IMG/VR virus record: IMGVR_UViG_3300034656_000087
From: an uncultured virus (IMG/VR IMGVR_UViG_3300034656_000087)
Taxonomy: Duplodnaviria > Heunggongvirae > Uroviricota > Caudoviricetes
Length of the DNA stretch: 64,000 nucleotides
Direction: 5' to 3' (one strand)
Shown here: positions 2,213-42,698 of the stretch, in pieces
How the letters are laid out: the number at the start of each line of letters is the position of its first letter
Numbering within the stretch: position 1 is the first letter of the stretch
The notes under the pieces: model-generated
The model's database searches: none
Seen by the model: only the letters and a program-made list of their open reading frames with translations
What the model was told of the DNA's origin: nothing
Translations under genes and position numbers: made by a program

Positions 2213-2917
2213 TCACAACCACCCAGCAGACCAAACAGCCCGCCCGATAATCTCCAGCTCTGCCAAGCGGTCACGCGGTACGATCACCTTATCGTACGCG
2301 CTGTTGGCGCTGATGATGGCGACCCCATCAAAGTTACGTTGTAACCGCTTGGCGTAGAGGTGTCCATCCAGGCGCAGGATATAGATACCCTCGCCCTCAA
2401 TCGTGGTGCGCGTGTGATCAATCAGCACCGTATCCCCGCTGTGCAGTACGGGTTCCATGCTATCACCGTCAATGCGGATCGCTGAGAGGTGATCCGGCGT
2501 CAGCCCCTGCTTGCGCAGTGAGTAGCGCGTGAAGCTGATATGCGTGAGCACACGACAGTTCTCATTCCAGGCACCCGCCCCAGCGCTGCACTGCGCGTCA
2601 TACAACGGCACAAAGGCGTAGTCCTCCATGCCTTGCACGTCTGCCGTACCGTTCGCCTCATCACCAAACGCTAGCCACTGCATATCTTTGCCCAACGCAT
2701 TAGCAATTTGCGCTAGACGATCAAGCGTCGGATAGGTATCACCGCTCAGATAACTGCGTATCGCACCCTCAGAAAGACCACACCTGCGTGAAAAAGCGCG
2801 CGCACTCTCTCCTCCGAGCACGCTTTTCAAGCGTGCGGGGAAGCATCCGATTCCATCAGTAGGCATCGGATGCTGACCTTCATCTTGCTGCTCAATATCC
2901 TTTTCTTCGTAACCCAC
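2213..2917 (-). CDS. c: Prophage repressor, XRE HTH plus S24 peptidase (CI-like); true start may be downstream
   Basis: HTH (ARAFSRRCGLSEGAIRSYLSG..PTLDRL) and S24 motifs (SAGAG, GDSMEP, AKRL); divergent from ner. Confidence 0.92.
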   Translation of the reverse strand: MGYEEKDIEQQDEGQHPMPTDGIGCFPARLKSVLGGESARAFSRRCGLSEGAIRSYLSGDTYPTLDRLAQIANALGKDMQWLAFGDEANGTADVQGMEDYAFVPLYDAQCSAGAGAWNENCRVLTHISFTRYSLRKQGLTPDHLSAIRIDGDSMEPVLHSGDTVLIDHTRTTIEGEGIYILRLDGHLYAKRLQRNFDGVAIISANSAYDKVIVPRDRLAELEIIGRAVWSAGWL

Positions 2918-3426: not shown

Positions 3427-3864
3427 ATGAAGCGCGTCAAAGACACCCAAACGCTAGACATCTTTGAGGTACCGGCTCCAGTCGTGCCTGCACCAGGTAG
3501 CGGTAACTACGCCGCTCAGGTGAGTGAGCTGGTAGGGGTAATTCTCAAAGAGTGCCCCGTTGACCGTTATGAGGTGGCGGCGCAAATGAGCCGTCTATCG
3601 GGTGACGACGTTTCCAAACACATGCTGGACGCCTGGAGTTCTCCTGGACGTTGTGACCACAACATCCCCTTCTACCGCATTCCGCTATTAGAAGAAGTTT
3701 GTCAGAGCCACATTTTTACCAATTGGCTAGTGCATCAGCGTGGTGGCCGAGTGGCCTATGGCCGTGAAGCACTCGCTGCGGAATATGGCAAACGCCAGCA
3801 AATGCTCGAAAAGCTCAAGCAAGACATGAAAGAGCTGAAGCGTTTAATGGGAGATGTGGAATGA
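3427..3864 (+). CDS. Conserved Mu-like phage early protein, function unknown
   Basis: Tightly coupled ORF between ner and transposase. Confidence 0.75.
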   Translation: MKRVKDTQTLDIFEVPAPVVPAPGSGNYAAQVSELVGVILKECPVDRYEVAAQMSRLSGDDVSKHMLDAWSSPGRCDHNIPFYRIPLLEEVCQSHIFTNWLVHQRGGRVAYGREALAAEYGKRQQMLEKLKQDMKELKRLMGDVE

Positions 3865-5930
3865 ACTGGTTCACCGCCAAAGAGCTGGCAGGTCTACCAG
3901 GGCTGCCTGGCACCGAACGAAACGTGCGCGAATACGCCAAGCGCCATGGTTGGGAAGGCCAACGCCGCATAGGCAGCAAGGCCGTGGAATACGCCTTCGC
4001 CGTACTACCCAAAGAAACCCAAAACGCACTGCTGATCAAAAGTACAGACGCCGCAAAGCCCACATCACAGTCAAGGGGCTCTTGCATTAGTGAGGTGCAA
4101 ATAGAAGAGCAGCGCCCAAGCCAGCAGCAACTCACCGATGCTCAACGCCAAGTGATGGGTGCCCGCGTTGCGTTCGTCCGCGAGATCGAACGCATGAGCA
4201 AGATGGTCAGCCAGCAGCGCGCTATCGAAACGTTAGTCGCCCATGCCCAGGCCGACGATCTAACGCCTTACCTCAAACAGCGGGTAGTGCTGGCGAACGA
4301 CCGTAAAACAGAAACGCGCACCCTTAGCGAACGCACCCTCAAGCGCTGGATCGCTGACTTCCGCAAGCACGGTGAACGCGGCCTCGCCCCCAAACGCCGC
4401 AAAGCCGATATGAGCATGCCGCCGTGGGCCGGTGACTTTCTCAAGCGCTACCAGAAGCCGCAGAAACCATCGGTCGAAGCGGCCTATCAACTGCTTGTCG
4501 AGCAGACCGAGCCGCCGCACCCTTCTATCCATCAGGTGCGCCGCTGGCTTGCCAAGCTGTCACCGGAAGCGCGTGAGCGTGGCCGCATGGGTGCGCATGA
4601 GCTGAAAGCCCTCCAGCCCTTCAAGCGCCGCACCAGCGACGCGCTACTGCCCAACGATGTGTGGGTAGCGGATGGCCACACCTTCGATGCCGAAGTGATC
4701 AACCCGCTCACCGGCCAGGCTTTCCGGCCCGAGATTACCTTGATCATCGATTGGGGCACCCGCCGCATCGTCGGCTTTGCCCTCAACCTTGCCGAATCCA
4801 CTGTGGCCACGCTGGATGCACTGCGCGATGCCGTGAGCCGCGTAGGCATGTTCAACCTGTTCTATGTCGATAACGGTTCAGGCTTTGACAACGCCACTGT
4901 TTACGAAGTGGTCGACCGCCTGGGGGGCAGCATTACCCACTCACTGCCCTACAACTCCCAGGCACGCGGCGTCATTGAACGCGCCCACCAAACCATCCTG
5001 GTGAAACTGGCTAAAGAGATGCCCAGCTTTATTGGCGCAGATATGGATAAAGAAGCCGCCACTAAAGCGCACAAGTTAAGCCGCCGCGATATTAAACAAG
5101 GGTTAAATCCCGCCTTTATTCCCACGTTTCAAGAGTTCTTCGAGCGCTTGAACGACGCCCTGGATGTTTATAACCACCGGCCCCACAAAGGGCTGCCCAA
5201 AGTGCGCGACTTAGACAGCGGCAAGCTACGCCACCAAAGCCCCATGGAAGCCTGGAAAAGTGCCGAGGCCGAAGGCTTCGAAGCGCTCACCGCACCCAGT
5301 GATGTGGTCGCCTCGCTTATGCGCCCGCAAGAAGTGCGCAAAACCAACCGTGGCGAAGTGCGTATCAACGGCGGCGTCTACTTCATGGATGCCCTGCGCG
5401 ACTTCCACGGCGAAGAGATCCGTGTGGCCTGGGATTACCGCGACACCGGCTGCGTCGGCATCTTCACCCTGGAAGGTGAATACCTCGGCGATGCTCAACT
5501 AGATGGCAACGCCACACCCGCGATGCCCGCCAGCATGATCGAACGTGCCGCCGAAAAACGCGAAAAAGGCCAACTCAACCGTTTGGTGCAAAAAGCCAAG
5601 GTGGTCACCGGTAGCGATGTGGAGTTCAGAACGATTACCCCCGCCGCCCGCCAATCAGACGAAAAGCAGGCTGCCCAAGGCCGCGCCTACGCCAAGCGGC
5701 TGGCCGATCAAGGCACACGCTTTCAGATACCCCACAACAAGATGGAGCGCTATCGGCTCTGGAAGAAGCTGGATGGACAACTACAGCAAGGAGAAGAAGT
5801 ACCCGCCGCCGCCCGCGAATGGCACGAGCGTTACCAGCACCACAGTGATTTAAAAGCCATCGCCAAAGTGATGGATACCGAAATGGATGCAGGTGGGCGG
5901 CAACCCACCCGCACCCGACGGGCCGTCTGA
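3861..5930 (+). CDS. A: Mu-like DDE transposase (MuA)
   Basis: N-terminal Mu DNA-binding domain (WFTAKELAGLPGLP); catalytic WVADGH...YVDNGSG...GVIER; Mu-transposase C-terminal region. Confidence 0.97.
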   Translation: MNWFTAKELAGLPGLPGTERNVREYAKRHGWEGQRRIGSKAVEYAFAVLPKETQNALLIKSTDAAKPTSQSRGSCISEVQIEEQRPSQQQLTDAQRQVMGARVAFVREIERMSKMVSQQRAIETLVAHAQADDLTPYLKQRVVLANDRKTETRTLSERTLKRWIADFRKHGERGLAPKRRKADMSMPPWAGDFLKRYQKPQKPSVEAAYQLLVEQTEPPHPSIHQVRRWLAKLSPEARERGRMGAHELKALQPFKRRTSDALLPNDVWVADGHTFDAEVINPLTGQAFRPEITLIIDWGTRRIVGFALNLAESTVATLDALRDAVSRVGMFNLFYVDNGSGFDNATVYEVVDRLGGSITHSLPYNSQARGVIERAHQTILVKLAKEMPSFIGADMDKEAATKAHKLSRRDIKQGLNPAFIPTFQEFFERLNDALDVYNHRPHKGLPKVRDLDSGKLRHQSPMEAWKSAEAEGFEALTAPSDVVASLMRPQEVRKTNRGEVRINGGVYFMDALRDFHGEEIRVAWDYRDTGCVGIFTLEGEYLGDAQLDGNATPAMPASMIERAAEKREKGQLNRLVQKAKVVTGSDVEFRTITPAARQSDEKQAAQGRAYAKRLADQGTRFQIPHNKMERYRLWKKLDGQLQQGEEVPAAAREWHERYQHHSDLKAIAKVMDTEMDAGGRQPTRTRRAV

Positions 5931-5969
5931 ACCACGGCCCATGACACCCGCAGCAATTAAGGAACTGAT

Positions 5970-6689
5970 ATGAGCGTCAACACCATTGTACCACTCACCA
6001 ACGTTGGCCTACTGGCCGCCGCTGTCGAAAGCGCCGCCAACCGCCCACCAGAACTACCTGGCTTAGTGGTCATGTACGGCCCCAGCGGCTACGGCAAAAG
6101 CCTGGCAGCCGCCTATGCCGCCAACCTGCACCGCGCCTACTACGTCGAGTGCCGCGAAAGCTGGACGAAGAAAGCGTTCGTGGTTGCCATCCTGCGCGAG
6201 ATGGGCATCATCCCCATGAAGACGCTGAGCGAGATGGTCGACCAGATCGCCGAGCAGCTCTCCCGCTCTGGTCGCCCGCTGATCATTGATGACGTTCAGT
6301 ACGTCATCGACAAAGCCGCCGCCAACGTTTTAACGGACATCTATAACGCCAGCCAAGGCACCCTGATTTTGATCGGTGAAGAGCGCGTGCCTGCCTCCAT
6401 GGCTCGCCTGGAGCGCCTGCATAACCGCGTCCTAGAATGGGTGCCCGCCCAAGCCGCCAGCCTGGACGACGTGTGTGCCCTGGCCGCCAAAAGCTACCCC
6501 GACATCATCATCGAAGACGACCTGCTAGACGCCATCAACCACCGTGTTAAAGGCTGCCTGCGCCGTGTGGCGGTGAACCTCTACCAGATCCACTCCGAAG
6601 CCACCGCCCAGGGCTGGAAGACAGTGGGCCTAAGCGAGTGGAGCGAGCAAGACATCCACACCGGCCAACCACCGGCGCGGAGGGGCTGA
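5970..6689 (+). CDS. B: Transposition AAA ATPase (MuB-like)
   Basis: Walker A GPSGYGKS, Walker B LIIDD; directly after transposase. Confidence 0.93.
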   Translation: MSVNTIVPLTNVGLLAAAVESAANRPPELPGLVVMYGPSGYGKSLAAAYAANLHRAYYVECRESWTKKAFVVAILREMGIIPMKTLSEMVDQIAEQLSRSGRPLIIDDVQYVIDKAAANVLTDIYNASQGTLILIGEERVPASMARLERLHNRVLEWVPAQAASLDDVCALAAKSYPDIIIEDDLLDAINHRVKGCLRRVAVNLYQIHSEATAQGWKTVGLSEWSEQDIHTGQPPARRG

Positions 6690-25349: not shown

Positions 25350-25640
25350 ATGAGTGCCAAACAGACCACTAAAGCAGCGGCTGAGCAAAGCGCTGATAAA
25401 GACGCACCACCACCGCGCTCCCGCGAGGCTGTGTCGGTGCGGGTGAAGACAAAATCACCCGGTGTAAAGCGTCAGGTGTGCGGTGTCATTTTCGAGAACA
25501 CCTGGAAGTACTTGACGCTGGATGATCGCGGCAGCGCCTACAAAGCCATTGCCCGCGATCCCGCGATGGTGATGGAAAAGGCAACACCGCCACCGAAGCC
25601 AGTGGCCACTGAAGAGTCAACAGGCAAAGAGGCCAAGTAA
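25350..25640 (+). CDS. Hypothetical protein
   Basis: SD GGAG; TAATG coupling to the next gene. Confidence 0.65.
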   Translation: MSAKQTTKAAAEQSADKDAPPPRSREAVSVRVKTKSPGVKRQVCGVIFENTWKYLTLDDRGSAYKAIARDPAMVMEKATPPPKPVATEESTGKEAK

Positions 25641-26077
25641 TGCTCTCGCTCATTCCGTGGCTCGACCGTTTGAACGCCCTGGAAGGGCTGCCCACCGTGC
25701 AACTGGCCGCCGATGTAGAAGCGGCCAAAAACAAGGTGGGCCTGCCCAGCATGATGCTGGTGCTGGGGCGCGAAACGGTGAGCCACGGGGCCATGAGCAA
25801 CCAGGCACGCCACCGGGTGAAAACCGAAGTGCTCCTGGTCACGGGTATTAAACGCATGAACGCGCCGCTCGGCCCGGTGGCCACCCCAGGCGAAGACGTA
25901 CTGGCCAGCCTACGTCAGCCCGCCTTGACCGCATTGATCAACTGGCTGCCCACAGGCTGCGACATCCCCGTGAAATGGCAGCGCGGCCAGCTGCTGGCGC
26001 TGGAAAGCCATGCCCTGTTTTGGGCTGACGTGTTTACCACCGAATACTTTTGGCCACTTGAGGAGACTTCACCGTGA
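25640..26077 (+). CDS. Tail terminator-like protein (gp37-like)
   Basis: AL.NW.P...G.LL......W.D.F.T; position before the tail tube gene. Confidence 0.72.
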   Translation: MLSLIPWLDRLNALEGLPTVQLAADVEAAKNKVGLPSMMLVLGRETVSHGAMSNQARHRVKTEVLLVTGIKRMNAPLGPVATPGEDVLASLRQPALTALINWLPTGCDIPVKWQRGQLLALESHALFWADVFTTEYFWPLEETSP

Positions 26078-27015
26078 CCATGAAAACGAACCGCCGGGCG
26101 ATGCTGTTCGCCCTTGAATCGGACTACAACGACGGCACGACCACGCCTGAAGGTGCCACCGATGCCGTGTTAACTCGCGAGATCAGCGTGACCCCGCTCA
26201 GCGGTAACGACATCGAACGTAACTTTGTGCGCCCGTATTACGGCAATAGTCCGCGTGCCGCTGGTGAAAAGCACGTAGAGGTGCAGGTGGAAGTCGAGCT
26301 ATGCACTAGCGGCACCGCTGGCACGGCTCCGCCGTGGGGCAAGATGCTGCGCTGTTGTGGCTTTTCGGAAGTCATCGATAACACCGTTGGCAGCGAAAGC
26401 GTGACCTACGCACCCGTGTCGGAGAACGAAGACAGCGGCGTGTTCTTCGTCCATGTCGATGGCAACTTGCACAAAGGCCGTGGGGTACATGGCACGGCGG
26501 CCTTCACGGTCAACGCGGAGAGTATCCCTGTTGTTCGTTTCACGCTGCGAGGCTTGTTGAGCCCCGTCACCCCAGAACAACTCCCCGCCGTCACGCTCAG
26601 CCAGTGGAACGCTGCCTTGGCGGTCAACACCCTGAACACCGAGCCGCTGACCTTCATGGGGGCCACCGTACCCTTCAATCAGTTCTCGCTGGATATGAGT
26701 GGCGAGGTGGTTCACAAGAAGATCGTCGGCTCCAACGACATTCAGATCACCGGGCGCGCACCGTCTGGCCAGCTGATCATTGAAGACCCCGGCGTAGGGG
26801 TTAAGAACTACTTCGAGGTCTCACAAAACGCTGAGACAGGTGCGCTCGCGCTCACGCACGGCAAGACCGCAGGCCAGATCATCGAAATCAGCATGCCGAA
26901 AGTGGGTATCGAATCGCCCACGTACTCCGACCAGGACGGCACCCAGATGCTGACCATGAACTACCGGCCCGAGCCGGTCGACGGTAACGACGAAGTCACC
27001 ATCGTCGTCAAGTAA
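26074..27015 (+). CDS. Major tail tube protein (siphovirus type)
   Basis: E..Y, RPYYG, GTAPPWG..LR.CG, GNDE; no sheath gene in this prophage. Confidence 0.85.
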   Translation: MTMKTNRRAMLFALESDYNDGTTTPEGATDAVLTREISVTPLSGNDIERNFVRPYYGNSPRAAGEKHVEVQVEVELCTSGTAGTAPPWGKMLRCCGFSEVIDNTVGSESVTYAPVSENEDSGVFFVHVDGNLHKGRGVHGTAAFTVNAESIPVVRFTLRGLLSPVTPEQLPAVTLSQWNAALAVNTLNTEPLTFMGATVPFNQFSLDMSGEVVHKKIVGSNDIQITGRAPSGQLIIEDPGVGVKNYFEVSQNAETGALALTHGKTAGQIIEISMPKVGIESPTYSDQDGTQMLTMNYRPEPVDGNDEVTIVVK

Positions 27016-27072: not shown

Positions 27073-27396
27073 GTGTTCAAACTCAATACCAACCGCTCAT
27101 ACACCTACCCCGTCTCACTCACCATTTACGACGAGGAAGGCAAAGAGCAGACCGGCAAATTCACGGCCAAGTTCAAAGCACTGCCGCAAGACAAGCTGCG
27201 TGAAATGCCCGCCGACTCGCTGCTGCTCGATCATGTGCTGCTCGGCGTGAGCGGTCTGGAAGTGGCGGGCGAAGATGGCCAACCACTACAGGGTGAACAG
27301 CTGCTGCACGCGGTGAAAAATGACCCTGCCGCGAGCACCGCTCTGATCACGGCTTACCAAGAGAGCGTCTCAAAAAAGAACCGTCCGCGAATCTGA
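27073..27396 (+). CDS. Tail assembly chaperone with -1 frameshift site
   Basis: Position; in-frame slippery A AAA AAG at 27372-27378. Confidence 0.82.
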   Translation: MFKLNTNRSYTYPVSLTIYDEEGKEQTGKFTAKFKALPQDKLREMPADSLLLDHVLLGVSGLEVAGEDGQPLQGEQLLHAVKNDPAASTALITAYQESVSKKNRPRI

Positions 27397-27758
27397 TCGA
27401 CGCAGGCAAGCACTGGGCAGAAGCCAGTAACGGCAAGCCCAACTTGGTCAAGGACGACCTCGCCGCCCTGGGCATCACCCTGGGCGGCGAGCTAGCCGAA
27501 GAGGCAGAGGCGTTCGATGCCGAGCCAGATGTCTTTGAAGTGTTGCCAGAGAACTGGCAAGCCGTCGAGACATTTCAGCGTTGTTGCCGCCAATGGCGCT
27601 TCGCTGGCATGGGTGGTGCTGTTGGGCTGGATGTGCAAGCGGTGATCAGCGTTATCAGCCTCTACCAACTTCCCCCAGAGCAACAACTTGAGCGGCTGGA
27701 TCAAGTGCAGCTCATCGAGCGCGGCGCGCTCAGCGTCATGAACCAACCCCGCAACTAA
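27375..27758 (+). CDS. Frameshift extension of the tail chaperone (DUF1799)
   Basis: The -1 frame is open from the slip site; VLPENWQAVETF....QWR...GLD...IERGAL. Confidence 0.85.
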   Translation, partial: KEPSANLIDAGKHWAEASNGKPNLVKDDLAALGITLGGELAEEAEAFDAEPDVFEVLPENWQAVETFQRCCRQWRFAGMGGAVGLDVQAVISVISLYQLPPEQQLERLDQVQLIERGALSVMNQPRN

Positions 27759-27776: not shown

Positions 27777-30700
27777 GTGGCGAACAATCTAACGCTTAGC
27801 GTCACCCTCACTGGCGATGGCCGTCAGCTCACCGGCACCTTGCGCAATGCGCAGGGTGAAGTGCGTGAGTTTGGCGGTACCACCGAGCGTGAAAGCGCTA
27901 GGGCTGAGCGTGCGTTAGAAGGCACTGGCCAACAGGCACAGACAGTTTCTGGCCATCTGAACCAACTTCGCACTGTGGCGATAGGCGTTGGGGCGGCATT
28001 AACGGCGATGGGCGTGTCTAGCTTTGCCAACGACACTTATCAGGCTGTGAGCAGCTCTCAACAGCTTCAGGCGTCACTCAAAACGGTTACCGGCTCAATA
28101 GCCAACGCCTCAGCAGCTTGGAATACGCTATTAGGCTTTGCAGCAGAAACACCTTTCACGCTTGATCAATCGGTTCAGGCATTCATCCGTATGCAATCGT
28201 TAGGTCTAAAACCTAGCCAAGAAGCACTACGATCCTACGGCAACACCGCCGCTGCCATGGGCAAAGACATGATGCAGATGGTGGAAGCTGTTGCTGACGC
28301 TACTACTGGAGAGTTTGAGCGTCTTAAAGAGTTCGGAATCAGAGCCAGCAAAGAAGGTGAGCAAGTGTCATTCACCTTCCAGGGTGTTACCACCACCGTG
28401 GCAAATAGTGCCTCCGCTATTAGCCAGTATTTACAAGAGATTGGTGAGCTGCAGTTTGCTGGTGCCATGGCCGATCAAATGGACACCCTTAGCGGTAAGG
28501 CATCTAACCTAGAAGATACAATCTACCAGTTCTACCTGGCCATTGGTGATGCTGGTGCTACGGGAGTTTTCGAAGCCACTCTCGCTAACGCCAGTAGCAC
28601 TGTGCAGTTTCTGACCGACAACATCGATACGTTAGCGTCCGGTGCTGAAATCCTAGCAGTGCTAGTGGGTGGACGCGTTGCTGTCGCCCTTACGACAGCT
28701 ACTACTGCCATGGTTGCAAAGACACTCGCCACACAAGCAGACCTAAGAGCAGAGGCAGCCGCAGCAGTTGCCAACACTCGCCGAACCGCCGCAGAAAAGC
28801 AGACCGCTCTCGCCCTTCTCAGTACTGCGCGACTAGAAGCACAGGCTACTCAAGGCACCGCTGCCCATACCTTTGCACTGCAACAGCTAAGCGTGGCTCG
28901 AACACGGGCCGCAACCGCAGCAGGCGCGCACACAGCAGCGATGAATACCGCCACAGCTGCTACGGCCAGGGCCAGCGTTGCAGCGCGCGGATTAAGCGGT
29001 GCTTTGGCACTGGTTGGTGGCCCACTGGGGCTGTTGGTCGGAGGTGCAGGTCTGCTTTATCTGTTCCGTGATGAGTTGGGGCTGACGGTTCCCCAAGTCG
29101 ACGCCAACACTACGGCGGTCAACAAGCTGACCAATGGGCTTGACGACATGAGCCAGGCCGCTGCTCAGCTCACACTGACATCTCTGGTGGGCCAGCTTGC
29201 GGAAGTACGCGCCCAGGCTGAAGTCACGGCTGAAGCCTTTACCAAGGTCGGCCAGATCGAAGGCGATGGCGGCGGTGGTTTCTTAGGCGTTGACGTAACG
29301 GCACAGACCAATGCCGTTCGTGAACTGGGCGAAACCAGCAACGCTACTCAGCAAGAAGCCGCCAACCTTGAAGCGGCTATTGCGCTAGTAGAAAGTCGAA
29401 TTGGTCAGTTGGGTGAACGCAATCGCGAAGTCACTCCCACGGTTACTGAAATTGGCGACGCTAGCGAAACCGCTGCGGCAAAAGCCAAAGAAATGGCGAA
29501 AGCAGCCAGCGAGCAAGCCGACGCTATCGAAGCCCTACGCAACCGCATGATCCCCCACCGCCAAGAGACGGTGCAGCTCGCTCAGGATCAAAACACCCTC
29601 AACCTCGCCTTCGCCATGGGCCGTGTAAGCGCCGCTGACTACTTATCGCTCATGGGTGCGTTGCAGCAGTCGTATATGGAGGTCACCGACACCTCTAAAA
29701 AAGCTGCCGACCAAATCAGCGTGGATGTTTCTACCTGGACCACCATCTCTGAAAACGGCATCCGCCGCGTGGACGATGCTGGGGTGGATCTCTGGCTCGG
29801 CCTGATTGATGGCAGCCGCAACGCCATGGATACCGTCAAACGCGGCATTCAGCAGTCGCTCGCTGAAATTGCCCACATGCTCACCACTCAACGGCTGACA
29901 GTGGCCATCGCGGGTTCGCTGGGTTTCAACACTAGCGGTGCGGGTGGCATGGGGGGTGTCGGTTCTGGCGGTGGATTTGGCATAAGCCCCGGCAGCATTA
30001 ACAACGCGTGGCAGGCACTGCAAGGCGGTATCGGCGGCATTCAGTGGGGCGGTGTTGGCAGCGCATCAGCGTATGGCGGTACCGGCTTTGCCAATGCGGC
30101 TACCAGTGGCCTAGGGCAAACCGGCTTCATGGGCGGCAGCCTGAACAACTTCAGCGGCATGCAGGGCTTAGCAGGCCTGGGCGCAGGCTTTGCGGGTAAC
30201 TGGCTAGGTGGCCAACTGTTTGGCCAGGGCAAGCATTCCAGCACGCTTGGCACCATTGGCGGCGCGGTCGGCACCTATTTTGGCGGCCCGTTGGGCGCGC
30301 TCGCTGGCTCCACGCTAGGCTCTGCACTGGGCGGCATCTTCGGCGGCTCCTGGGAAACCAAAGACGCAGGCCTGAATCTTGGTGTCTCTTCTGGCGACAT
30401 TACCGGCAATCAGTACGAGAACCAACGCAAGAGCGGAGGCTGGTTCTCCAGTTCAAAATCACGCACCCGCACGAGCGCCCTCAATGGCGAGCTTGAGGCG
30501 ATGCTGCAGGACGCATATGCCGCGCAAGAAGCATCGTTAGCCGTCACCCTCGAAACCCTGGGGCAACAGTCCAGCGCATTGAACGCGTTCAGCAGCGGCC
30601 TCACTCGCATCAGCACCAAAGGGCTGGATGAAGCGGAGGTAGAGCAAGCGGTTCAAGAGTGGCTGCAAAACGTGGTGAACAGCGCAGCGGCATCAGTCAC

Positions 30701-33239
30701 AGATCCCAGCCAGTACGCCCGCGCTGGCGAGACCACCGTTGATACGCTCAGCCGCCTAGCGGCCGCGCTAAGCGGCATCAACCCGATCCTAGAGCAGCTG
30801 CACGAGAACAGCCTGGCGGCCTCGCTAGCCGGTGGCGATGCAGCCAGCCACCTTGCCGAGCTGGCAGGCGGCATCGATGCGTTCAGCGCACGCGCCGACT
30901 ACTACTATCAGAACGTACTCACCGAAGCCGAGCGCCAAGAGCGCGCTATGAACGCAGCCGCGCAAGCCATGGGAGCTTTCACAGCCCGCACCGGGCGCGT
31001 GATCGAATCCACCGACGCCCTGCGTGAGCTTGTCGACGGTATCGACCTCACCACCGCTTCCGGGCGTGAGCTGTACAACCAGGCAATGAACCTAGCCCCG
31101 GCCCTGGTGGAGATCGAGCGCGGCCTAGAACGTGTTGGCCAGCAGTTTGAACAGATGCTCGCCGACGCCAGCGCGGTAGTTTCTGACGCTGAAGCGCAAG
31201 TGCGCCAAGCCTGGCAAACCTTCGACCGCCAGTCCTTCAGCCAGCAGATCGAGCTGCTGAACCTAATAGGCGACGCTGAAGGCGCGCTCGCCCTGGAACG
31301 CGAGCGCGAACTAGCAACGATCGACGAGGCCCTACGCCCCACCCAGGAGCGCATCTGGGCGATTCAAGACGAGATCGCGGTTCAGCAGAACGCGACTCAA
31401 GCGGCCCGCAACTATCAGAACGAAGTGGCGCGTGTACGCGACCAGCTCAACCAGCAGCTCGGCAATATTGGCAACTGGCTAGACCAGCAGCGAGCGACCA
31501 GCGGCACGCCTGAGATGAACCTGGCCACCGCCCAAGAGCAGCTCGCCCGGCAGTTGGTGCTCATAGAAAACGGCGACCGCACGGCGCTACAGAACATCAC
31601 TCAATACGCGCAGCAAGTACTTGAGGCTAACCAAGCTTTTAACGCCAGCAGCGCCGCTGGCCAGCGCATCCAAGAAGACGTTTATGCGGCTATCCGGGCA
31701 TTGCCCGATGCCATCAGTGCCGAGGAGTATCTCGCCACCGAGATCCGCGACGCCCTTCAATCCGTCGTCATCTCAGCCATGCCGACAGACGAACGCCTGA
31801 CGTTTGAGCTGAGTCGTGAACTGATCCGGTTGGATGCTAACCAGCTCACCGTTTCACAAGTGCGCACCGCGCTAGAGCCCATCGCCACAGACGCCGAGAT
31901 CAGCAAGCTCATCCGCGAAGTCGATACCAATGGCGATGGCATCATCACCCGTCAGGAGCTGGGCAACGCCCGGCTATCAGGATTAGCAGGCGGCATCGGT
32001 ACAACGCTGAAACCGATGTTCGACGCAATCGACCTGGACGCCTCCGGACTGATCGACTGGAACGAGTTCTATGGTGCGTTCGAGGGACTCGCTAGCGACC
32101 AGGAGTTACGGCGCATCTTCCAAAAGCTGGACGCCGACGGCAGCGGTACTATCAGCCGTCTAGAGGCACTTAACCGCTCCAATGAAGGTACAGAGGCAAA
32201 CACCGACTCACTGGAAAAGCAGGCCCGCGATCAACTGCGTGAGCTGAACGGATTGGTGAGCGAGATGGCGCGCTCCACCGATCAGTTTGTCGGGCTGAAC
32301 ACCACGATGGTGAGTCTGCGTGAATCAATCAGCGCACTGGGCGTTGCACAAGAAGAAGTGGCGAGGATTGAGCAGGAGCGTTTAGCGGCTGAGAAAGCGG
32401 AGCGAGAGAGGATTGAGCGGGAGCGCGTGGAAGCGCAGCGCGGGTCCTTAGCGAGTGAAATTGATCGCTTACAGCGTGAGCAGCAGTCGCTAGCAAATAC
32501 CGGTGTTTCGGCGCCCAGTCGCAGCGTTATCAACTCCAGTTATCGACATGTACCTGACGCGGTCAACAACATTAACCGCATCGCGGACAGCATCCTGGGC
32601 TCGTCGGGCGTTACTGACCGATCAGCTGAGCGTTTGCGTGACTACTACACAACCGGGGGTGGCTTCGCCCAGGATCAAGGCGTAGGTGATGCCCCTGGTC
32701 CAGGCGGCGCTTACTCGCCTGGCGGCTTGTACTGGCCTTACGTCCAGGCGTATATCAACGAGATTGAGAGCGCTGTCGACACCAGGCAGTCGGCTACTAG
32801 TCTGGATAGCGAAATTGCGAGATTGCGCGCTGAACTGAATAAATTGAACTCGGTTGATGGCTCACATGCCACAGGTCTATGGAATGTGCCGTTTGATGGC
32901 TATATCGCAGAGCTACACCGCGATGAAATGGTGGTGCCCGCGCAAACGGCGGGCCGGTTGCGCGAGCTACCGAGCCGTGAGCTACCCATGCCTGCACTGC
33001 CCAACTTCCCGCTCCTAGGCAATAACGATGTGCTTGAGACCCTGCGCGACCTCAAGCGTGAGATTGCAGAGCTACGCCGCGACAACGCCCGCTTGCAAGG
33101 CGAAAGCAACAAGCACCTGGCTGCCGCCAACAACCAGCGCGGAGCCGCTGCCACGCAGCAGATCGCTGCCACCGAGCGCGGCAACCGGATGCTGAAAAAG
33201 ATGGAAGATGACAAGCGACTGGAGGCGGCGAAACGATGA
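27777..33239 (+). CDS. Tape measure protein with internal EF-hand domain
   Basis: 1820 aa, Ala-rich; FAAETPF...GEFERLKEFGI tape motif; EF-hand loops at 31923, 32031, 32130. Confidence 0.93.
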   Translation: MANNLTLSVTLTGDGRQLTGTLRNAQGEVREFGGTTERESARAERALEGTGQQAQTVSGHLNQLRTVAIGVGAALTAMGVSSFANDTYQAVSSSQQLQASLKTVTGSIANASAAWNTLLGFAAETPFTLDQSVQAFIRMQSLGLKPSQEALRSYGNTAAAMGKDMMQMVEAVADATTGEFERLKEFGIRASKEGEQVSFTFQGVTTTVANSASAISQYLQEIGELQFAGAMADQMDTLSGKASNLEDTIYQFYLAIGDAGATGVFEATLANASSTVQFLTDNIDTLASGAEILAVLVGGRVAVALTTATTAMVAKTLATQADLRAEAAAAVANTRRTAAEKQTALALLSTARLEAQATQGTAAHTFALQQLSVARTRAATAAGAHTAAMNTATAATARASVAARGLSGALALVGGPLGLLVGGAGLLYLFRDELGLTVPQVDANTTAVNKLTNGLDDMSQAAAQLTLTSLVGQLAEVRAQAEVTAEAFTKVGQIEGDGGGGFLGVDVTAQTNAVRELGETSNATQQEAANLEAAIALVESRIGQLGERNREVTPTVTEIGDASETAAAKAKEMAKAASEQADAIEALRNRMIPHRQETVQLAQDQNTLNLAFAMGRVSAADYLSLMGALQQSYMEVTDTSKKAADQISVDVSTWTTISENGIRRVDDAGVDLWLGLIDGSRNAMDTVKRGIQQSLAEIAHMLTTQRLTVAIAGSLGFNTSGAGGMGGVGSGGGFGISPGSINNAWQALQGGIGGIQWGGVGSASAYGGTGFANAATSGLGQTGFMGGSLNNFSGMQGLAGLGAGFAGNWLGGQLFGQGKHSSTLGTIGGAVGTYFGGPLGALAGSTLGSALGGIFGGSWETKDAGLNLGVSSGDITGNQYENQRKSGGWFSSSKSRTRTSALNGELEAMLQDAYAAQEASLAVTLETLGQQSSALNAFSSGLTRISTKGLDEAEVEQAVQEWLQNVVNSAAASVTDPSQYARAGETTVDTLSRLAAALSGINPILEQLHENSLAASLAGGDAASHLAELAGGIDAFSARADYYYQNVLTEAERQERAMNAAAQAMGAFTARTGRVIESTDALRELVDGIDLTTASGRELYNQAMNLAPALVEIERGLERVGQQFEQMLADASAVVSDAEAQVRQAWQTFDRQSFSQQIELLNLIGDAEGALALERERELATIDEALRPTQERIWAIQDEIAVQQNATQAARNYQNEVARVRDQLNQQLGNIGNWLDQQRATSGTPEMNLATAQEQLARQLVLIENGDRTALQNITQYAQQVLEANQAFNASSAAGQRIQEDVYAAIRALPDAISAEEYLATEIRDALQSVVISAMPTDERLTFELSRELIRLDANQLTVSQVRTALEPIATDAEISKLIREVDTNGDGIITRQELGNARLSGLAGGIGTTLKPMFDAIDLDASGLIDWNEFYGAFEGLASDQELRRIFQKLDADGSGTISRLEALNRSNEGTEANTDSLEKQARDQLRELNGLVSEMARSTDQFVGLNTTMVSLRESISALGVAQEEVARIEQERLAAEKAERERIERERVEAQRGSLASEIDRLQREQQSLANTGVSAPSRSVINSSYRHVPDAVNNINRIADSILGSSGVTDRSAERLRDYYTTGGGFAQDQGVGDAPGPGGAYSPGGLYWPYVQAYINEIESAVDTRQSATSLDSEIARLRAELNKLNSVDGSHATGLWNVPFDGYIAELHRDEMVVPAQTAGRLRELPSRELPMPALPNFPLLGNNDVLETLRDLKREIAELRRDNARLQGESNKHLAAANNQRGAAATQQIAATERGNRMLKKMEDDKRLEAAKR

Positions 33240-35546: not shown

Positions 35547-36785
35547 ATGGCGAGCGTAACGTTTCCCGAAGCGCTGGGCGGTAACGGCCAGACCTACACC
35601 GACGACGCAGACCCCAACACAGGCTTGGACGGCCTTGGTTATACCGTCCGTTTTATACCGTGCCTGCAACAAGCCGTAGTGATGGGCCTATCGGCACAAA
35701 GCAACGCCCAGGCCGCCGCTGACTATGTGCAACAGTGCCAAACACTGCGCGAAGAAGTGGCCACCGACCGACAAGCGGTTGCTGATGATCGTACCCACAT
35801 CGACCAACAGAAAACCGCTGTTGATACCGCCGCTGGGCAAGTAGCCACCGATAAGCAAGCCGTTGCTGGCGATCGTACCCACGTCGACCAACAGAAAACC
35901 GCTGTTGATACCGCTGCTGAGCAAGTGACTATTGATCGCCAAGCAGTCGCTGGCGATCGTACCCACGTCGACCAACAGAAAACCGCTGTTGATACCGCCG
36001 CTGGGCAAGTGGCCACTGACCGACAAGCCGTCTCTGATGACCGCTTGGCCAGCGAGCAGGCAGCCGGTGCTTCAAGTGATGCTGCTGACGCGTCTATTCT
36101 TGCTAGGAATCAGGCCGAAGCGCTCTACGGTGACCTAACCGCTGTAGACGCTGCAAAAACCGAAGCCCAACAGGCAGCGACCCTTTCAAGCGAAGAGCGA
36201 GGGCTAGCCGAGACAGCACGCGCTGGCGCTGAAACCGCTCAGGCCGCCTCAGAGCAAGCCGCAAGTACAAGCCAGCAGGCGGCCTCTGATGCAGTCGCTG
36301 CCCACGGTAATGAATTAAACCCCCACACTCAGTATGAAAAGAAAGAAGCGTTAAAAGCTGGGGCTTATCGAGCGGCAGTGGGCGTGGGTGATCTCTATAG
36401 CCGAGGCGGGGTTGTAGGTCCCGTTTCTCAAGATGGTGGCGTACCCACGGGCGCTGTTATTGAGCGAGGAAGTAACGCTAACGGGGAGTATACGAAATTC
36501 GCTGACGGGACGCTGATTTGCAGAAGCGGTATTCTCTCAGTTGGTGGCGTTGCATTAGCTTATGGTTCCATATACGAGAGTGAAACCTTTGTCTGGACAT
36601 TTCCACATGAATTTATTAGTTCGCCATCGCCATCTGGATTTGCGCTAGGAGGCAATAACAGAGCTTGGCTAGCATTGGGAGATAGCGGATCTTCGATGTC
36701 CCACTTAGCGGTGCGTCTCCTGAGAGCCGGATCGACTACGAGCACTATTACATTTTCTGAGACGGCTATAGGCCGCTGGTACTAA
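35547..36785 (+). CDS. Tail fibre / receptor-binding protein
   Basis: Coiled-coil repeats, NPHTQY, C-terminal GAVIERGSNANGEYTKFADGTLIC...AIGRW domain. Confidence 0.85.
   Translation: MASVTFPEALGGNGQTYTDDADPNTGLDGLGYTVRFIPCLQQAVVMGLSAQSNAQAAADYVQQCQTLREEVATDRQAVADDRTHIDQQKTAVDTAAGQVATDKQAVAGDRTHVDQQKTAVDTAAEQVTIDRQAVAGDRTHVDQQKTAVDTAAGQVATDRQAVSDDRLASEQAAGASSDAADASILARNQAEALYGDLTAVDAAKTEAQQAATLSSEERGLAETARAGAETAQAASEQAASTSQQAASDAVAAHGNELNPHTQYEKKEALKAGAYRAAVGVGDLYSRGGVVGPVSQDGGVPTGAVIERGSNANGEYTKFADGTLICRSGILSVGGVALAYGSIYESETFVWTFPHEFISSPSPSGFALGGNNRAWLALGDSGSSMSHLAVRLLRAGSTTSTITFSETAIGRWY
35757..36043 (+). repeat. 84-bp (28-aa) in-frame tandem repeat, ~3.4 copies
   Basis: VATDRQAVADDRTHIDQQKTAVDTAAGQ units. 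Confidence 0.9.
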
Positions 36786-37762: not shown

Positions 37763-37960
37763 ATGGTGTTAATAGAAATCCGTTGTAAGCAATGCAATCG
37801 CAAGCTGGCCAACGTCAGCGACTATCAGTTCATCGAAATAAAGTGCCCACGTTGTAGGCACTTAAACCAGCAGAGAGCCACGAGCTCCAAACCCTTAAAG
37901 GAGACGCCTCGTGGCTACCCCAATCATTCCCTGGATGGGCGGCAAGCGCCGCCTCGCTGA
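37763..37960 (+). CDS. com: Com-family zinc-ribbon translational regulator
   Basis: IRCKQCNRKLA...IEIKCPRCRHLN. Confidence 0.88.
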   Translation: MVLIEIRCKQCNRKLANVSDYQFIEIKCPRCRHLNQQRATSSKPLKETPRGYPNHSLDGRQAPPR

Positions 37961-38702
37961 CCGTATCTTCCCACTAATGCCACCGCACCAGTGCTACGTA
38001 GAGCCCTTCGCAGGAGGGGCCGCGCTGTTCTTCCTGCGCCCCTCCCCTGCAGACGTCGAGGTGCTAAACGACGTCAACGGCGACTTGGTGAACCTATATC
38101 GTGTGGTGCAGAACCACCTTGAGGAGTTCGTCAGGCAGTTCAAGTGGGCACTCTCCAGCCGCCAAGTGTTCGAGTGGCTGAAGATGACACGCCCAGAAAC
38201 ACTCACGGACATCCAGAGGGCTGCACGCTTCTACTATCTACAGCAGAACGCCTTCGGTGCCCGCATCGAAGGCCAAACGTTTGGCACTGCCACCACTACA
38301 CCGCCAGGGCTAAACCTGCTGCGCCTAGAGGAGTCGCTGTCCGCTGCACACCTACGCTTAGCCAGCACGTTCATCGAACACCTAAGCTGGCAAGACTGCA
38401 TCGAGCGATACGATCGCCCGCACACGCTCTTCTATATGGACCCGCCCTACTGGCAGACAGAAGGATATGGGGTACCCTTTGGCATAGAGCAGTACGAGGA
38501 AATGGCGAGCATACTGGCCAGGCTGAAAGGCAAGGCCATCATCAGCCTCAACGACCACCCAGACATCCGCCGGATCTTCGCGGACTACCACATCGAAACC
38601 ACCGACATACGCTACACCGTCGGGGGCGGCAAAGGCTCAGACGCCAAAGAGGTTCTGATCTTCAGTTGGGATGTGGATGCCGAGCCAGCGGGGCTGTTTT
38701 AG
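37911..38702 (+). CDS. dam: DNA adenine methyltransferase (Dam/D12 class) at the mom position
   Basis: WMGGK, YVEPFAGG, LNDVNGDL, DPPY. Confidence 0.95.
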   Translation: MATPIIPWMGGKRRLADRIFPLMPPHQCYVEPFAGGAALFFLRPSPADVEVLNDVNGDLVNLYRVVQNHLEEFVRQFKWALSSRQVFEWLKMTRPETLTDIQRAARFYYLQQNAFGARIEGQTFGTATTTPPGLNLLRLEESLSAAHLRLASTFIEHLSWQDCIERYDRPHTLFYMDPPYWQTEGYGVPFGIEQYEEMASILARLKGKAIISLNDHPDIRRIFADYHIETTDIRYTVGGGKGSDAKEVLIFSWDVDAEPAGLF

Positions 38703-39743: not shown

Positions 39744-40805
39744 TTACTCTGCGTTCGGGTCATCCAGTCGATAAGGATCGAACCTCACCACCTCTTCACC
39801 AACGTGTTCGTTGATCTCTCTCATCGTTGCCTGCAGCGGTTCCAGTTCATTGGCTACGAACACCCGCGCTGCCTTTTCGATGTCGCCAAACCCCCCGGTA
39901 TTTTGCGGGATGATGCCCATTAACTGGGGCGGTATGCGATGACCAGCCAGCTGATCGTCGCGGGTGATGTTCTTGATGTTGTAGAACTCATCTTTGGCGG
40001 CCACCTCAGACACCGGGATGATCTGAACGCCGTCCTTCTTACCACGAGGCGAGTAGAGAAACAGGTTCCGGAAGTTGCCCGGCCCCTTACTCTCTTTCAG
40101 CGCCTTACGCATCGCGTCAATATCCTTCTGGTCGTGGGCCGGATCATTCACATACATGATAAATCCAGCGTGTGAGCCGTTCAGATAGTAGCGGCGGCGG
40201 AACAGCGTAGCCGACTCATTCAACCAGGCGCTTTGCAGGCTGCCGATATAGTCCGGCACCCCATAGATAGTCTGGTCTATGTCGGGCTCCAATAGGTGGA
40301 TGGTTCGCCCCTTGGGCAGCTCCACGCGCTCCATGTAGTTGGGGTTCCACCAGTAGCGGTCATCATCACCGCGCCGCATATACTTTGCCGAGCGATGCTG
40401 CAAGCCCAGCAAGCGGCCTAACCGCCCTCTCATCTCTTCCAGGTAGCCATTGCCAAACACTAGGTAGTCGAGGGCTAGCGCGCTGAAGTTGCGGCGGCTT
40501 AGCAGCGGGTGGGGTACAAACGTTTTGAGCAAAATATTCCGCTTCACTTGCAAGGCGCTGCCGTGGTGTGGGGTCGCGCGATAGCTCTTGGCAAGAATGC
40601 TCAGCGGGATCGGTGGTTCGTACCACTCATCAGGCGTTAGCCAGACACCCTCATACCAAACGTCACGCATGCTAGTGACTGGCTCGGGGTCGCCAAAGGT
40701 GAATGCCTCCATCCGTCCATTATCAGTGGCCACCGCTGGGGCGGCCGTTTCAGTCTGATAGGCGGGCACGCGAATACGCGGCTTAGCCGCAGCGGTCGTC
40801 GTCAT
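39744..40805 (-). CDS. Q: Portal protein
   Basis: EAFTFGDPEPV, WYEPP, LNESATLFRRRYY.NGSHAG, AAKDEF. Confidence 0.96.
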   Translation of the reverse strand: MTTTAAAKPRIRVPAYQTETAAPAVATDNGRMEAFTFGDPEPVTSMRDVWYEGVWLTPDEWYEPPIPLSILAKSYRATPHHGSALQVKRNILLKTFVPHPLLSRRNFSALALDYLVFGNGYLEEMRGRLGRLLGLQHRSAKYMRRGDDDRYWWNPNYMERVELPKGRTIHLLEPDIDQTIYGVPDYIGSLQSAWLNESATLFRRRYYLNGSHAGFIMYVNDPAHDQKDIDAMRKALKESKGPGNFRNLFLYSPRGKKDGVQIIPVSEVAAKDEFYNIKNITRDDQLAGHRIPPQLMGIIPQNTGGFGDIEKAARVFVANELEPLQATMREINEHVGEEVVRFDPYRLDDPNAE

Positions 40806-42592: not shown

Positions 42593-42598
42593 GCCGCC

Positions 42599-42698
42599 AG
42601 CGTACCCGCCGCGCGCGATGCCCACGCCTGCCTCGACTTGTCTTGCCTTCCTCGCACAACGCCAAGCCGTTGAGACTATCGCGCTACACGCGGAACCT
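42599..42698. promoter_or_regulatory. Divergent late promoters pP/pO sharing one Ogr-type site
   Basis: TGT-N14-ACA at 42639-42658; -10 TACGCT (minus) and GAACCT (plus) at equal offsets. Confidence 0.72.

Follow-up and report, generated by a model that had tools for sequence, protein, structure and literature searches.

Mycobacteriophage tape measure proteins (TMPs) carry Rpf-like or hydrolase motifs, and to our knowledge it is poorly understood how the TMP of siphophages stays metastable and what expels it ahead of the DNA. In other bacterial proteins, the RTX repeats and the dockerins, an established low-in/high-out logic is at work, since they are unfolded at cytoplasmic Ca2+ and folded outside the cell. 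The TMP of phage T5, pb2, is described in the excerpted text of its report as a metastable trimer that has its C-terminus in the tip and is expelled first, into the periplasm; the same excerpts assign to its C-terminal domain a peptidoglycan-digesting activity and propose that it refolds in the periplasm (PMC10038345). For LysGH15, a staphylococcal phage lysin, the excerpted report describes an 'EF-hand-like' Ca2+ site on which the activity of the enzyme relies (PMC4022735). In the literature on tape measure together with EF-hand or calmodulin, the excerpts of the matches listed do not describe a TMP with EF-hands. We present here a predicted calcium-binding module in TMPs that is common to many related prophages and has apparently never been studied before.

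The module was found in a window of 64,000 nt (the whole stretch of DNA that was analysed), inside an open reading frame of 1820 aa with a GTG start (27777..33239, + strand; ORF list and translation). The preliminary description had taken this frame for a Mu-like tape measure protein. Its identity as the TMP gene was borne out by PHROG 1716 'tail length tape measure protein' (E 3.2e-53, aa 42-291); 13 of the 15 PHROG families listed were tape measure families (PHROG 1716 and 12 others), the remaining 2 being without function, and the NCBI name of its relatives is 'tape measure protein'. The N-terminal TMP domain (aa 42-291; 27900..28649, +) also gave a match to Pfam TMP_3 at aa 89-251, which scored 32.7 bits and so fell below the cut-off of 41. 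The position is that of a TMP gene: no gene of the tail module is longer, and it is placed downstream of the tail tube protein (26074..27015, +; Pfam Phage_tube_2, E 8.8e-11; PHROG 290) and of two tail assembly chaperone-type ORFs (27073..27758, +, starting at 27073 and 27444; PHROG 569 and PHROG 680; Pfam DUF1799), and upstream of distal tail genes (at 33236 and 34671, and at 35547 a tail fibre gene, PHROG 2712).

The term Mu-like proved right for the prophage, which carries Mu-type transposase A and B genes (3861..6689, +; PHROG 310, E 6.5e-165, and PHROG 296, E 5.7e-56; Pfam HTH_Tnp_Mu_1 and Mu-transpos_C) together with Portal_Mu, Phage_Mu_F and Phage_Mu_Gp36 (PHROG, Pfam). It does not extend to the tail, however. 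Among the 34 ORFs scanned (2213-42625), none matched a sheath family of the kind that a Mu-type contractile tail has, and the sole sheath in the window (55927-57435) is part of a neighbouring P2-like prophage. Because the tube, the chaperones and a tail terminator (Pfam) were found and no sheath family was detected among those 34 ORFs, gene content indicates that the tail is non-contractile and the element a siphoprophage. Its nearest named relatives are in Halomonas/Vreelandella.

The module (aa 1337-1467; 31785..32177, +) consists of four EF-hands in two lobes and is calmodulin-like according to Pfam, an AlphaFold model, Foldseek and a PDB profile search. Three of its 12-residue loops have oxygen ligands at positions 1, 3, 5, 9 and 12 (Glu), Gly at 6 and a hydrophobic residue at 8, and were defined by the loop motif and the ligand columns: EF2, DTNGDGIITRQE (aa 1383; 31923..31958, +), EF3, DLDASGLIDWNE (aa 1419; 32031..32066, +), and EF4, DADGSGTISRLE (aa 1452; 32130..32165, +). 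They begin exactly where the preliminary description had put them (31923, 32031 and 32130), and the degenerate loop that it reported upstream is EF1, DANQLTVSQVRT (aa 1353; 31833..31868, +), delimited by alignment and by a predicted strand at model residues 37-39. This loop is conserved but non-canonical: it lacks the ligand set given above, has no acidic residue at position 12 and probably binds no Ca2+. Taking PROSITE PS00018 to be the EF-hand pattern, we add that EF4 departs from the strict EF-loop pattern at position 13 only. From these loop sequences we infer that EF2, EF3 and EF4 bind Ca2+.

The Pfam scan suggested in the preliminary description placed four EF-hand families (PF00036/PF13499/PF13202/PF13405) above their curated cut-offs, with 53.1 bits vs 25.4 for EF-hand_1, 49.2 vs 30 for the EF-hand_7 pair, 48.8 vs 25.9 for EF-hand_5 and 45.9 vs 25 for EF-hand_6, in three stretches; for the 173-aa piece taken by itself, E-values ranged from 3.5e-18 to 1.3e-12. 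A relaxed EF-loop pattern, run on the window in six-frame translation (128,000 codons), matched 4 times, and 3 of the 4 matches are the loops of the module, in one frame and within 250 nt.

An AlphaFold (AF2) model, another check suggested there, has four EF-hand units matching calmodulin. With a pLDDT of 76, the module is predicted as four helix-loop-helix units with a long central helix, in which short strands (model residues 37-39, 70-72, 106-108 and 139-141) have helices on both sides, so that the paired helix-loop-helix arrangement of EF-hands is present in the prediction. Foldseek with this model returned centrin, calmodulin and troponin C at probability 1.00 and 20-25% identity, and the PDB profile search, in which the helices align as well, returned calmodulin (E 5.8e-16); the linkers, which had been said to echo calmodulin helices, indeed align to TEAELQDMINEVD-type helices. 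The viral fold library BFVD yielded no match at E <= 0.001, and the top-ranking weak ones were entomopox and giant virus EF-hand proteins. According to the model, the module has a calmodulin-type fold and sits in line between helical TMP segments. A larger context fold (aa 1230-1640, 411 residues; pLDDT 51.5, pTM 0.24) shows a helix at model residues 244-345; its confidence is low and therefore only its secondary structure was used, with no geometry inferred.

Compared with known systems, the module shares with calmodulin, centrin and troponin C the four units in two pairs, the long joining helix and loops of the type D1, D/N3, D/S5, G6, E12. Unlike them, it forms part of a virion protein of 1820 aa instead of being a free cytosolic sensor, and its EF1 is non-canonical. 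Calmodulin proper is a free-standing protein of about 150 aa that has four functional sites and binds target helices in a Ca2+-dependent manner; an assignment to it was rejected on account of the embedding, the degenerate EF1 and the 20-25% identity, and we speak of a calmodulin-like fold only. A dockerin type I domain (PF00404) was also rejected, with no match at E <= 1 in the 1820-aa TMP and with entering helices predicted. As far as the excerpts on LysGH15 go, that lysin has a single loop in a CHAP enzyme domain and not in a virion tail, whereas the module described here is calmodulin-type and belongs to a tail protein. The nearest non-TMP relatives found among genome contigs are small bacterial EF-hand proteins of 92-262 aa from Alphaproteobacteria and others, with 1-5 loops and 22-56% identity over the best aligned segment; these are short and free-standing, whereas the module is part of a TMP. 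Capture from a Halomonas host gene was considered and rejected, as this query found no small EF-hand relative in 342 Halomonadaceae genomes. Set against the excerpted account of T5 pb2, and also against mycobacteriophage TMPs, the module is likewise a folded accessory, non-ruler domain in the distal, first-ejected part and variable among relatives. In contrast to pb2 as there described, the domain described here is a non-enzymatic EF-hand unit, internal (~350 aa follow it) and expandable to tandem arrays.

The preliminary description had held that liganding residues not conserved in homologues would refute its reading. We found the metal-ligand columns of the canonical loops retained in 86-100% of the rows (28-32 aligned relatives), at an overall identity of 45-80%. 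In EF2, D1 is kept in 27/28 rows, N3 in 26/28, D5 in 24/28, G6 in 26/28 and E12 in 26/29; in EF3, D1 in 31/32, N/S/D at position 3 in 30/32, D/S at position 5 in 31/32, G6 in 28/32 and E12 in 31/32. EF4 is the best-conserved loop (D1 32/32, N/D3 30/32, G6 31/32, I8 30/32, S9 30/32, E12 30/32). EF1 is non-canonical in every aligned row that covers it (27-28), with G in 12, R in 8 and D in 7 of 27 rows at position 1 and a variable position 12; its conserved positions are others, namely L5 (28/28), T6 (27/28), Q9 (25/28) and R11 (27/28). As synonymous sites were saturated in most of the Nei-Gojobori comparisons, the analysis is restricted to dN and a small number of ratios: for the module, dN was 0.12-0.31 and dN/dS, where defined, 0.10-0.13. 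The module is under purifying selection. In 7 of 9 comparisons the neighbouring segment aa 1541-1640 shows a much higher rate, with a dN of about 0.9-1.3. Directly after the module there is a highly conserved segment (aa 1475-1532, NTDSLEKQARDQLRELNGLV...; 32199..32372, +) that begins a long predicted helix (residues 244-345 of the context fold) and has 18 invariant columns over 16 rows at aa 1475-1525 (alignment A2).

The number of loops varies widely. Among 60 related TMP clusters, 21 have four loops, 20 three, 9 two, 3 ten, 3 seven, 1 six, 1 five and 2 none, and one TMP_3-positive TMP of 3318 aa carries 34 loops over about 1350 aa. Two close relatives, P0062 and P0063, retain only a ligand-less vestige, with 78-81% identity just upstream and 60% downstream of it; the conserved segment that follows the module is kept in them. 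In six relatives (L026, L029, L030, L034, L060 and L061), alignment A2 shows 78 additional residues, ending in DLNGDGV[IM]xGLESV, at the junction EIR/DALQSV (31749..31766, +), which correspond to an extra EF-hand pair. As this indel is clean, a vestigial loop at aa 1317-1328 was ruled out. The module is an accessory cassette, gained or lost as whole EF-hand pairs among related TMPs. It was found with three N-terminal TMP families (TMP_3, TMP_2 and PhageMin_Tail). Relatives of it are present in 37 IMG/VR contigs and in only 1 of 50,697 deposited phage records; in Halomonadaceae there were 37 matches in 19 of 342 genomes, all within open frames of 1549-2496 aa. Genome-wide context was drawn from relatives (loci L002 and L003).

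In the 1820-aa TMP the module lies about 350-480 residues before the C-terminus. Across the 58 loop-bearing clusters the distance from the last loop to the C-terminus has a median of 333 aa (IQR 320-364, range 137-426), and the distance of the loop array from the N-terminus varies by >1000 aa. The constant spacing from the C-terminus could reflect mere common descent.

The reading that we prefer, with a probability of about 0.5, is that the module is an accessory, Ca2+-stabilised distal ruler element which tunes virion stability and/or the exit of the TMP, and that it is no indispensable trigger of ejection. Tail assembly would take place in a cytoplasm with sub-micromolar free Ca2+, whereas in saline habitats the virion and the host periplasm would be exposed to Ca2+ at millimolar levels. 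During polymerisation of the tube around the TMP, the module would thus hold little Ca2+ and stay flexible; outside the cell it would take up Ca2+ and become compact, and there it may help the expelled TMP to fold and to remain outside the tail, in the periplasm. The Ca2+ folding logic proposed here is identical to that of RTX repeats and dockerins, from which the module differs in fold and motif, and no secretion system is involved. A simple switch in which Ca2+ arrives and the protein responds is unlikely, because Ca2+-rich saline habitats should already load the free virion; the contrast between a low-Ca2+ cytoplasm and a high-Ca2+ exterior is the more plausible logic.

The preliminary description had favoured a Ca2+-dependent switch or sensor for genome ejection. 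Spelled out further, a change in occupancy would refold the TMP and be needed to open the conduit, whether through loss of Ca2+ as the TMP tip enters the low-Ca2+ cytoplasm or through gain of Ca2+ in the periplasm. Such a trigger would agree with the canonical, conserved loops, with a two-lobe build that is found in sensors linking Ca2+ to conformational change, with the fixed distance to the first-ejected C-terminal end and with the metastable TMP in the excerpts on T5 (PMC10038345). However, P0062 and P0063 have no functional loops and the module is therefore dispensable in that lineage, which argues against an essential switch; furthermore, a range of 0 to 34 loops is unlike a tuned switch, and at marine Ca2+ the sites would be saturated in the free virion, so that we consider a trigger quite unlikely. 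Somewhat less doubtful, and still unlikely, is that the module is passive ruler material, a duplicable helical unit that lengthens the TMP and the tail and keeps its ligands for solubility or folding only. Changes by whole pairs or units, the 34 loops of a single TMP and a weak positive correlation of TMP length with loop number (r = 0.29, n = 60) speak for it; on the other side, the strict ligand retention and low dN go beyond what a spacer needs, the neighbouring aa 1541-1640 change much faster, and the array keeps a constant C-terminal distance instead of occurring anywhere in the ruler.

It has also to be considered that EF-hand arrays might form a spring or ratchet charged by Ca2+: built in without Ca2+ and in an extended state when the tail is put together in the cytoplasm, they would compact on binding Ca2+ and so drive the expulsion of the TMP before the DNA. 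Here, millimolar Ca2+ at the virion, or emergence into the periplasm unit by unit, would store tension or rectify movement, and the loop copy number (0 to 34) would set the force; we hold this for a long shot, a little below the trigger. Slightly less likely still is Ca2+-dependent docking, analogous to the pairing of dockerin with cohesin or of calmodulin with its targets: the loaded lobes would clamp a helix belonging to another tail protein, to the TMP or, once ejection has occurred, to a protein of the host envelope. In its favour, the module folds like calmodulin and centrin, both of which bind targets, a very conserved helix follows directly, and multi-unit TMP relatives give marginal Pfam dockerin matches (22.9-31.7 bits vs a cut-off of 22.9); but the 1820-aa TMP itself has no dockerin match at E <= 1 and the segment after the module is undocked in the AF2 model (pLDDT 39-46), which makes docking improbable. 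As to a chance resemblance or a functionless, decaying relic, the degenerate EF1 and the loss of loops in some relatives would fit, but the Pfam E-values (1e-14 to 3.5e-18), the clustering in the module of 3 of the 4 motif matches in 128,000 codons, the ligands conserved at 45-80% overall identity and a dN/dS of about 0.1 already refute it.

Should the module serve only as a spacer stabilised by Ca2+, what is gained is a modest point of annotation. The cargo domains of TMPs gain a non-enzymatic class. A module that is conserved, has intact ligands and keeps a constant distance to the end ejected first is a simple experimental handle, and natural relatives with 0, 2, 3-4, 10 and 34 loops are available. 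The spring or ratchet, if true, would be a new, metal-powered step of siphophage infection. In addition, the module could provide a molecular basis for the Ca2+ need of some marine and halophile phages.

Translation of the tape measure protein (TMP) gene, at 27777-33239 on the plus strand (1820 aa, GTG start), places three canonical EF-hand loops at exactly the coordinates proposed in the preliminary description: EF2, DTNGDGIITRQE, at nt 31923 (aa 1383); EF3, DLDASGLIDWNE, at nt 32031 (aa 1419); and EF4, DADGSGTISRLE, at nt 32130 (aa 1452). Upstream of them, the degenerate loop that had also been claimed is present as EF1, DANQLTVSQVRT, at nt 31833 (aa 1353). We refer to the stretch that holds the four loops, aa 1337-1467, as the module. 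A Pfam scan of the whole TMP, proposed earlier as a check, returned five EF-hand families above their curated cut-offs (EF-hand_1, with 53.1 bits against 25.4, EF-hand_5, EF-hand_6, EF-hand_7 and EF-hand_8); the pair model EF-hand_7 reached 49.2 bits against a cut-off of 30, and an isolated 173-aa piece of the protein gave EF-hand E-values down to 3.5e-18. As a chance control, a relaxed EF-loop pattern was run over the six frames of the window (128,000 codons). It matched four times, and three of these matches were the loops EF2-EF4.

The structure prediction that had likewise been suggested was made with AlphaFold2 on an alignment of the module, whose 32 rows come from the window and from Halomonadaceae genomes and were picked by tblastn, not by motif. 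The model (mean pLDDT 76.1, pTM 0.60) presents four helix-loop-helix units with a short strand in every loop (model residues 37-39, 70-72, 106-108 and 139-141), and a long central helix (residues 73-99) lies between the two EF-hand pairs. Foldseek against the PDB returned centrin, calmodulin and troponin C with probability 1.00, E of about 1e-4 and 20-25% identity; low global TM-scores, as seen here (0.28-0.37), are expected when two lobes differ in orientation. The profile of the alignment matched calmodulin with an E-value of 5.8e-16, and in this search the helices that had been described as linkers echoing calmodulin indeed aligned to its entering helices. On the basis of the profile, Foldseek and AlphaFold2 results, the predicted structure of the module is that of a calmodulin-like domain of four EF-hands, one of which has a non-canonical site. 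Calmodulin proper was rejected, since the module is embedded in a virion protein and its first site is degenerate. A 411-residue model of the surrounding region was of low confidence (pLDDT 51.5, pTM 0.24) and only its secondary structure was used, which predicts helices flanking the module and, behind it, one uninterrupted helix of about 100 residues.

The preliminary description had made its case depend on liganding residues being conserved in homologues, and the ligand columns of EF2-EF4 are kept in the module alignment (counts refer to the 28-32 rows covering each column). EF2 has D at position 1 in 27/28 rows, N at position 3 in 26/28, D at position 5 in 24/28, G at position 6 in 26/28 and E at position 12 in 26/29. 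The corresponding values for EF3 are D 31/32, N/S/D 30/32, D/S 31/32, G 28/32 and E 31/32, and EF4 presents D at position 1 in 32/32, N/D at position 3 in 30/32, G at position 6 in 31/32, I at position 8 in 30/32 and E at position 12 in 30/32. EF1 is non-canonical in all rows covering it and has conserved residues of its own (L5 28/28, T6 27/28, Q9 25/28, R11 27/28); these columns suggest a structural partner that does not bind Ca2+ rather than a decayed site. In codon comparisons with nine relatives, the module showed dN of 0.12-0.31 and dN/dS of 0.10-0.13 where computable, the synonymous sites being saturated; the TMP segment aa 1541-1640 reached dN of about 0.9-1.3 in seven of these comparisons. 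Immediately behind the module, aa 1475-1532 (window 32199-32372, NTDSLEKQARDQLRELNGLVSEMARSTDQFVGLNTTMVSLRESISALGVAQ) are conserved more strongly than the module itself, with 18 invariant columns in a second alignment of 16 TMP rows (our protein and 15 relatives), and they are retained in EF-less relatives.

The assignment of the protein as a TMP is given by PHROG 1716 ("tail length tape measure protein"), which matches aa 42-291 with E 3.2e-53; 12 of the 14 other PHROG families listed are also tape measure and two have no function, and Pfam TMP_3 scores 32.7 bits on aa 89-251, under its cut-off of 41. Upstream lie the tail terminator (25640-26077), the tail tube gene (26074-27015) and two chaperone-type ORFs (27073-27396 and 27444-27758), and downstream there are three ORFs, one of which (35547-36785) matches tail-fibre families. 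The element is a Mu-like transposable prophage, with a CI-like repressor (2213-2917, minus strand), Mu transposase A (3861-5930; PHROG 310, E 6.5e-165; Pfam HTH_Tnp_Mu_1 and Mu-transpos_C), transposition protein B (5970-6689), Portal_Mu, Mu F, a head protease, a major head protein and Mu gp36. The earlier label "Mu-like" holds for the replication and head genes but not for the tail, which is of the long non-contractile type: no sheath family was matched among the 34 ORFs scanned (2213-42625). A DNA methyltransferase gene (37911-38702; PHROG 56, E 6.7e-98) is situated beyond the tail-fibre genes and close to the right end of this prophage. A second, P2-like contractile-tailed prophage adjoins the Mu-like element at window 39744-64000, with portal and large terminase at 39744-42625 on the minus strand and, on the plus strand, scaffold, major head protein, small terminase, baseplate, tail protein, sheath (55927-57435) and a tape measure gene (58595-62263; 1222 aa; PHROG 28, E 6.1e-180), in which the relaxed pattern of the six-frame scan found no EF-hand loops. 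Within our TMP, aa 701-900 (window 29877-30476) are very glycine-rich (57 Gly in 200 residues), charged residues are almost absent from aa 701-800, and some relatives have glycine-zipper hits (PF13488) there; this stretch and the hydrophobic segments at aa 285-314 and 403-430 may be membrane-active parts of the protein.

A word-indexed search with aa 1300-1500 of the TMP yielded 63 protein clusters, nearly all of 1650-2760 aa with EF-hand Pfam domains, named by NCBI "tape measure protein" or "EF-hand domain-containing protein". The organisms named by source are all Halomonas or Vreelandella, and two other entries with names come from the environment, one from a marine sediment metagenome and one from a Tara ocean sample. 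The module occurs in 19 of 342 Halomonadaceae species genomes, and the open frames containing its 37 matches are all 1549-2496 aa long; when 400 scored genomes of the same class were sampled evenly, only the centre genome itself matched (E <= 1e-8). In IMG/VR there are 37 loci; seven have an ORF cut short by the contig end, and the 30 complete ORFs encode 1532-2447 aa with 1-13 loops. The 50,697 deposited phage records yielded a single relative, gp77 of EBPR siphovirus 2 ("similar to tail protein", 44% identical), whose EF-hand scores are slightly below the Pfam cut-offs. When 1.84 billion representatives were searched exhaustively with a profile, 145 proteins were found at E <= 1e-30; 127 of the best 150 were new. 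Outside the EF-hands, 68 of these resemble the Halomonas-type TMP set (E < 1e-10), and most of the other 59 are short fragments or different kinds of protein with several EF-hands. The module was found behind three N-terminal TMP families (TMP_3, TMP_2 and PhageMin_Tail). In one case a CHAP peptidoglycan-hydrolase domain accompanies it: the 1980-aa TMP_2-type TMP P0123 has this domain at aa 849-924 and EF-hand pairs at aa 1610-1810.

Loops were counted in 60 TMP clusters of the aa 1300-1500 search, excluding P0002, a self-duplicate, and three doubtful non-TMP rows (P0059, P0061 and P0064). Four loops were present in 21 clusters, three in 20, two in nine, ten in three, seven in three, none in two, and six and five in one each. 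The two-loop forms are without the first lobe, and the multi-unit forms have a 135-aa repeat unit with loop spacings of 36-33-66 aa. Six of the 15 aligned relatives carry an extra 78-aa EF-hand pair, inserted exactly between EIR and DALQSV of our TMP and ending in DLNGDGV[IM]xGLESV. The largest EF-hand array in any TMP of this analysis is that of P0065 (3318 aa; TMP_3 domain, 120 bits), with 34 canonical loops in a regular 77-aa (36+41-aa) pair repeat over about 1350 residues, the last loop being 268 aa from the C-terminus. At the other extreme, P0062 and P0063, 78-81% identical to our TMP just upstream of the module and 60% downstream, keep only one vestigial helix-loop-helix that has lost the first Asp and the position-12 Glu. 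Compared across these sequences, the module is a cassette changing by whole EF-hand pairs, and it is dispensable in some relatives. The distance from the array end to the C-terminus is nearly constant whatever the array length (median 333 aa, IQR 320-364, range 137-426, in the 58 clusters with loops).

The module stands in line in the distal third of the TMP as an accessory, pair-wise variable element, whose position is tied to the C-terminal end; its ligands are intact, it is under selection, and its predicted fold and Ca2+ sites are those of a calmodulin-type EF-hand domain. Free Ca2+ is sub-micromolar in the cytoplasm, where tails are assembled, but millimolar around virions and in the periplasm in marine or saline habitats. 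Most of the EF-hand sites would accordingly stay unoccupied while the tail is built and bind Ca2+ later, and from this difference we read the module as a conditional-fold element, which would be pliable during polymerisation of the tube and stabilised by Ca2+ outside the cell. It may serve to adjust virion stability, or it may assist the TMP, once expelled, in folding and remaining in the periplasm. In siphophage T5, a trimeric, metastable TMP occupies the tube lumen, its C-terminus lies in the tip, and opening of the tip leads to its expulsion; refolding of its C-terminal domain in the periplasm has been proposed (PMC10038345).

The preliminary description had gone further and inferred a Ca2+ switch or sensor for genome ejection. 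Its structural part stands, that is, a calmodulin-like EF-hand domain in the TMP, but an indispensable ejection switch is less likely because close relatives are EF-less and loop numbers range from 0 to 34. That the module is a mere spacer is also less likely, because the ligands are strictly retained and the position is fixed. A conditional-fold element remains our preferred reading, and the data would suit a stabiliser and a folding ratchet alike.

Cargo domains embedded in TMPs are known, for example the hydrolase and Rpf motifs of mycobacteriophages, and few motifs are better known than the EF-hand. Automatic annotation already labels EF-hand and TMP in combination, for example as "EF-hand domain-containing protein" and "tape measure protein". 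We found no published description of EF-hands in a TMP, and the text of subscription journals or supplements could hold one; the nearest published item is the EF-hand-like site of the lysin LysGH15 (PMC4022735). The T5 protein pb2 is a TMP with embedded cargo, a peptidoglycan-digesting C-terminal domain (PMC10038345), and the module, too, is a domain embedded in a TMP. The EF-hand module in the TMP is a real, conserved and experimentally tractable feature.
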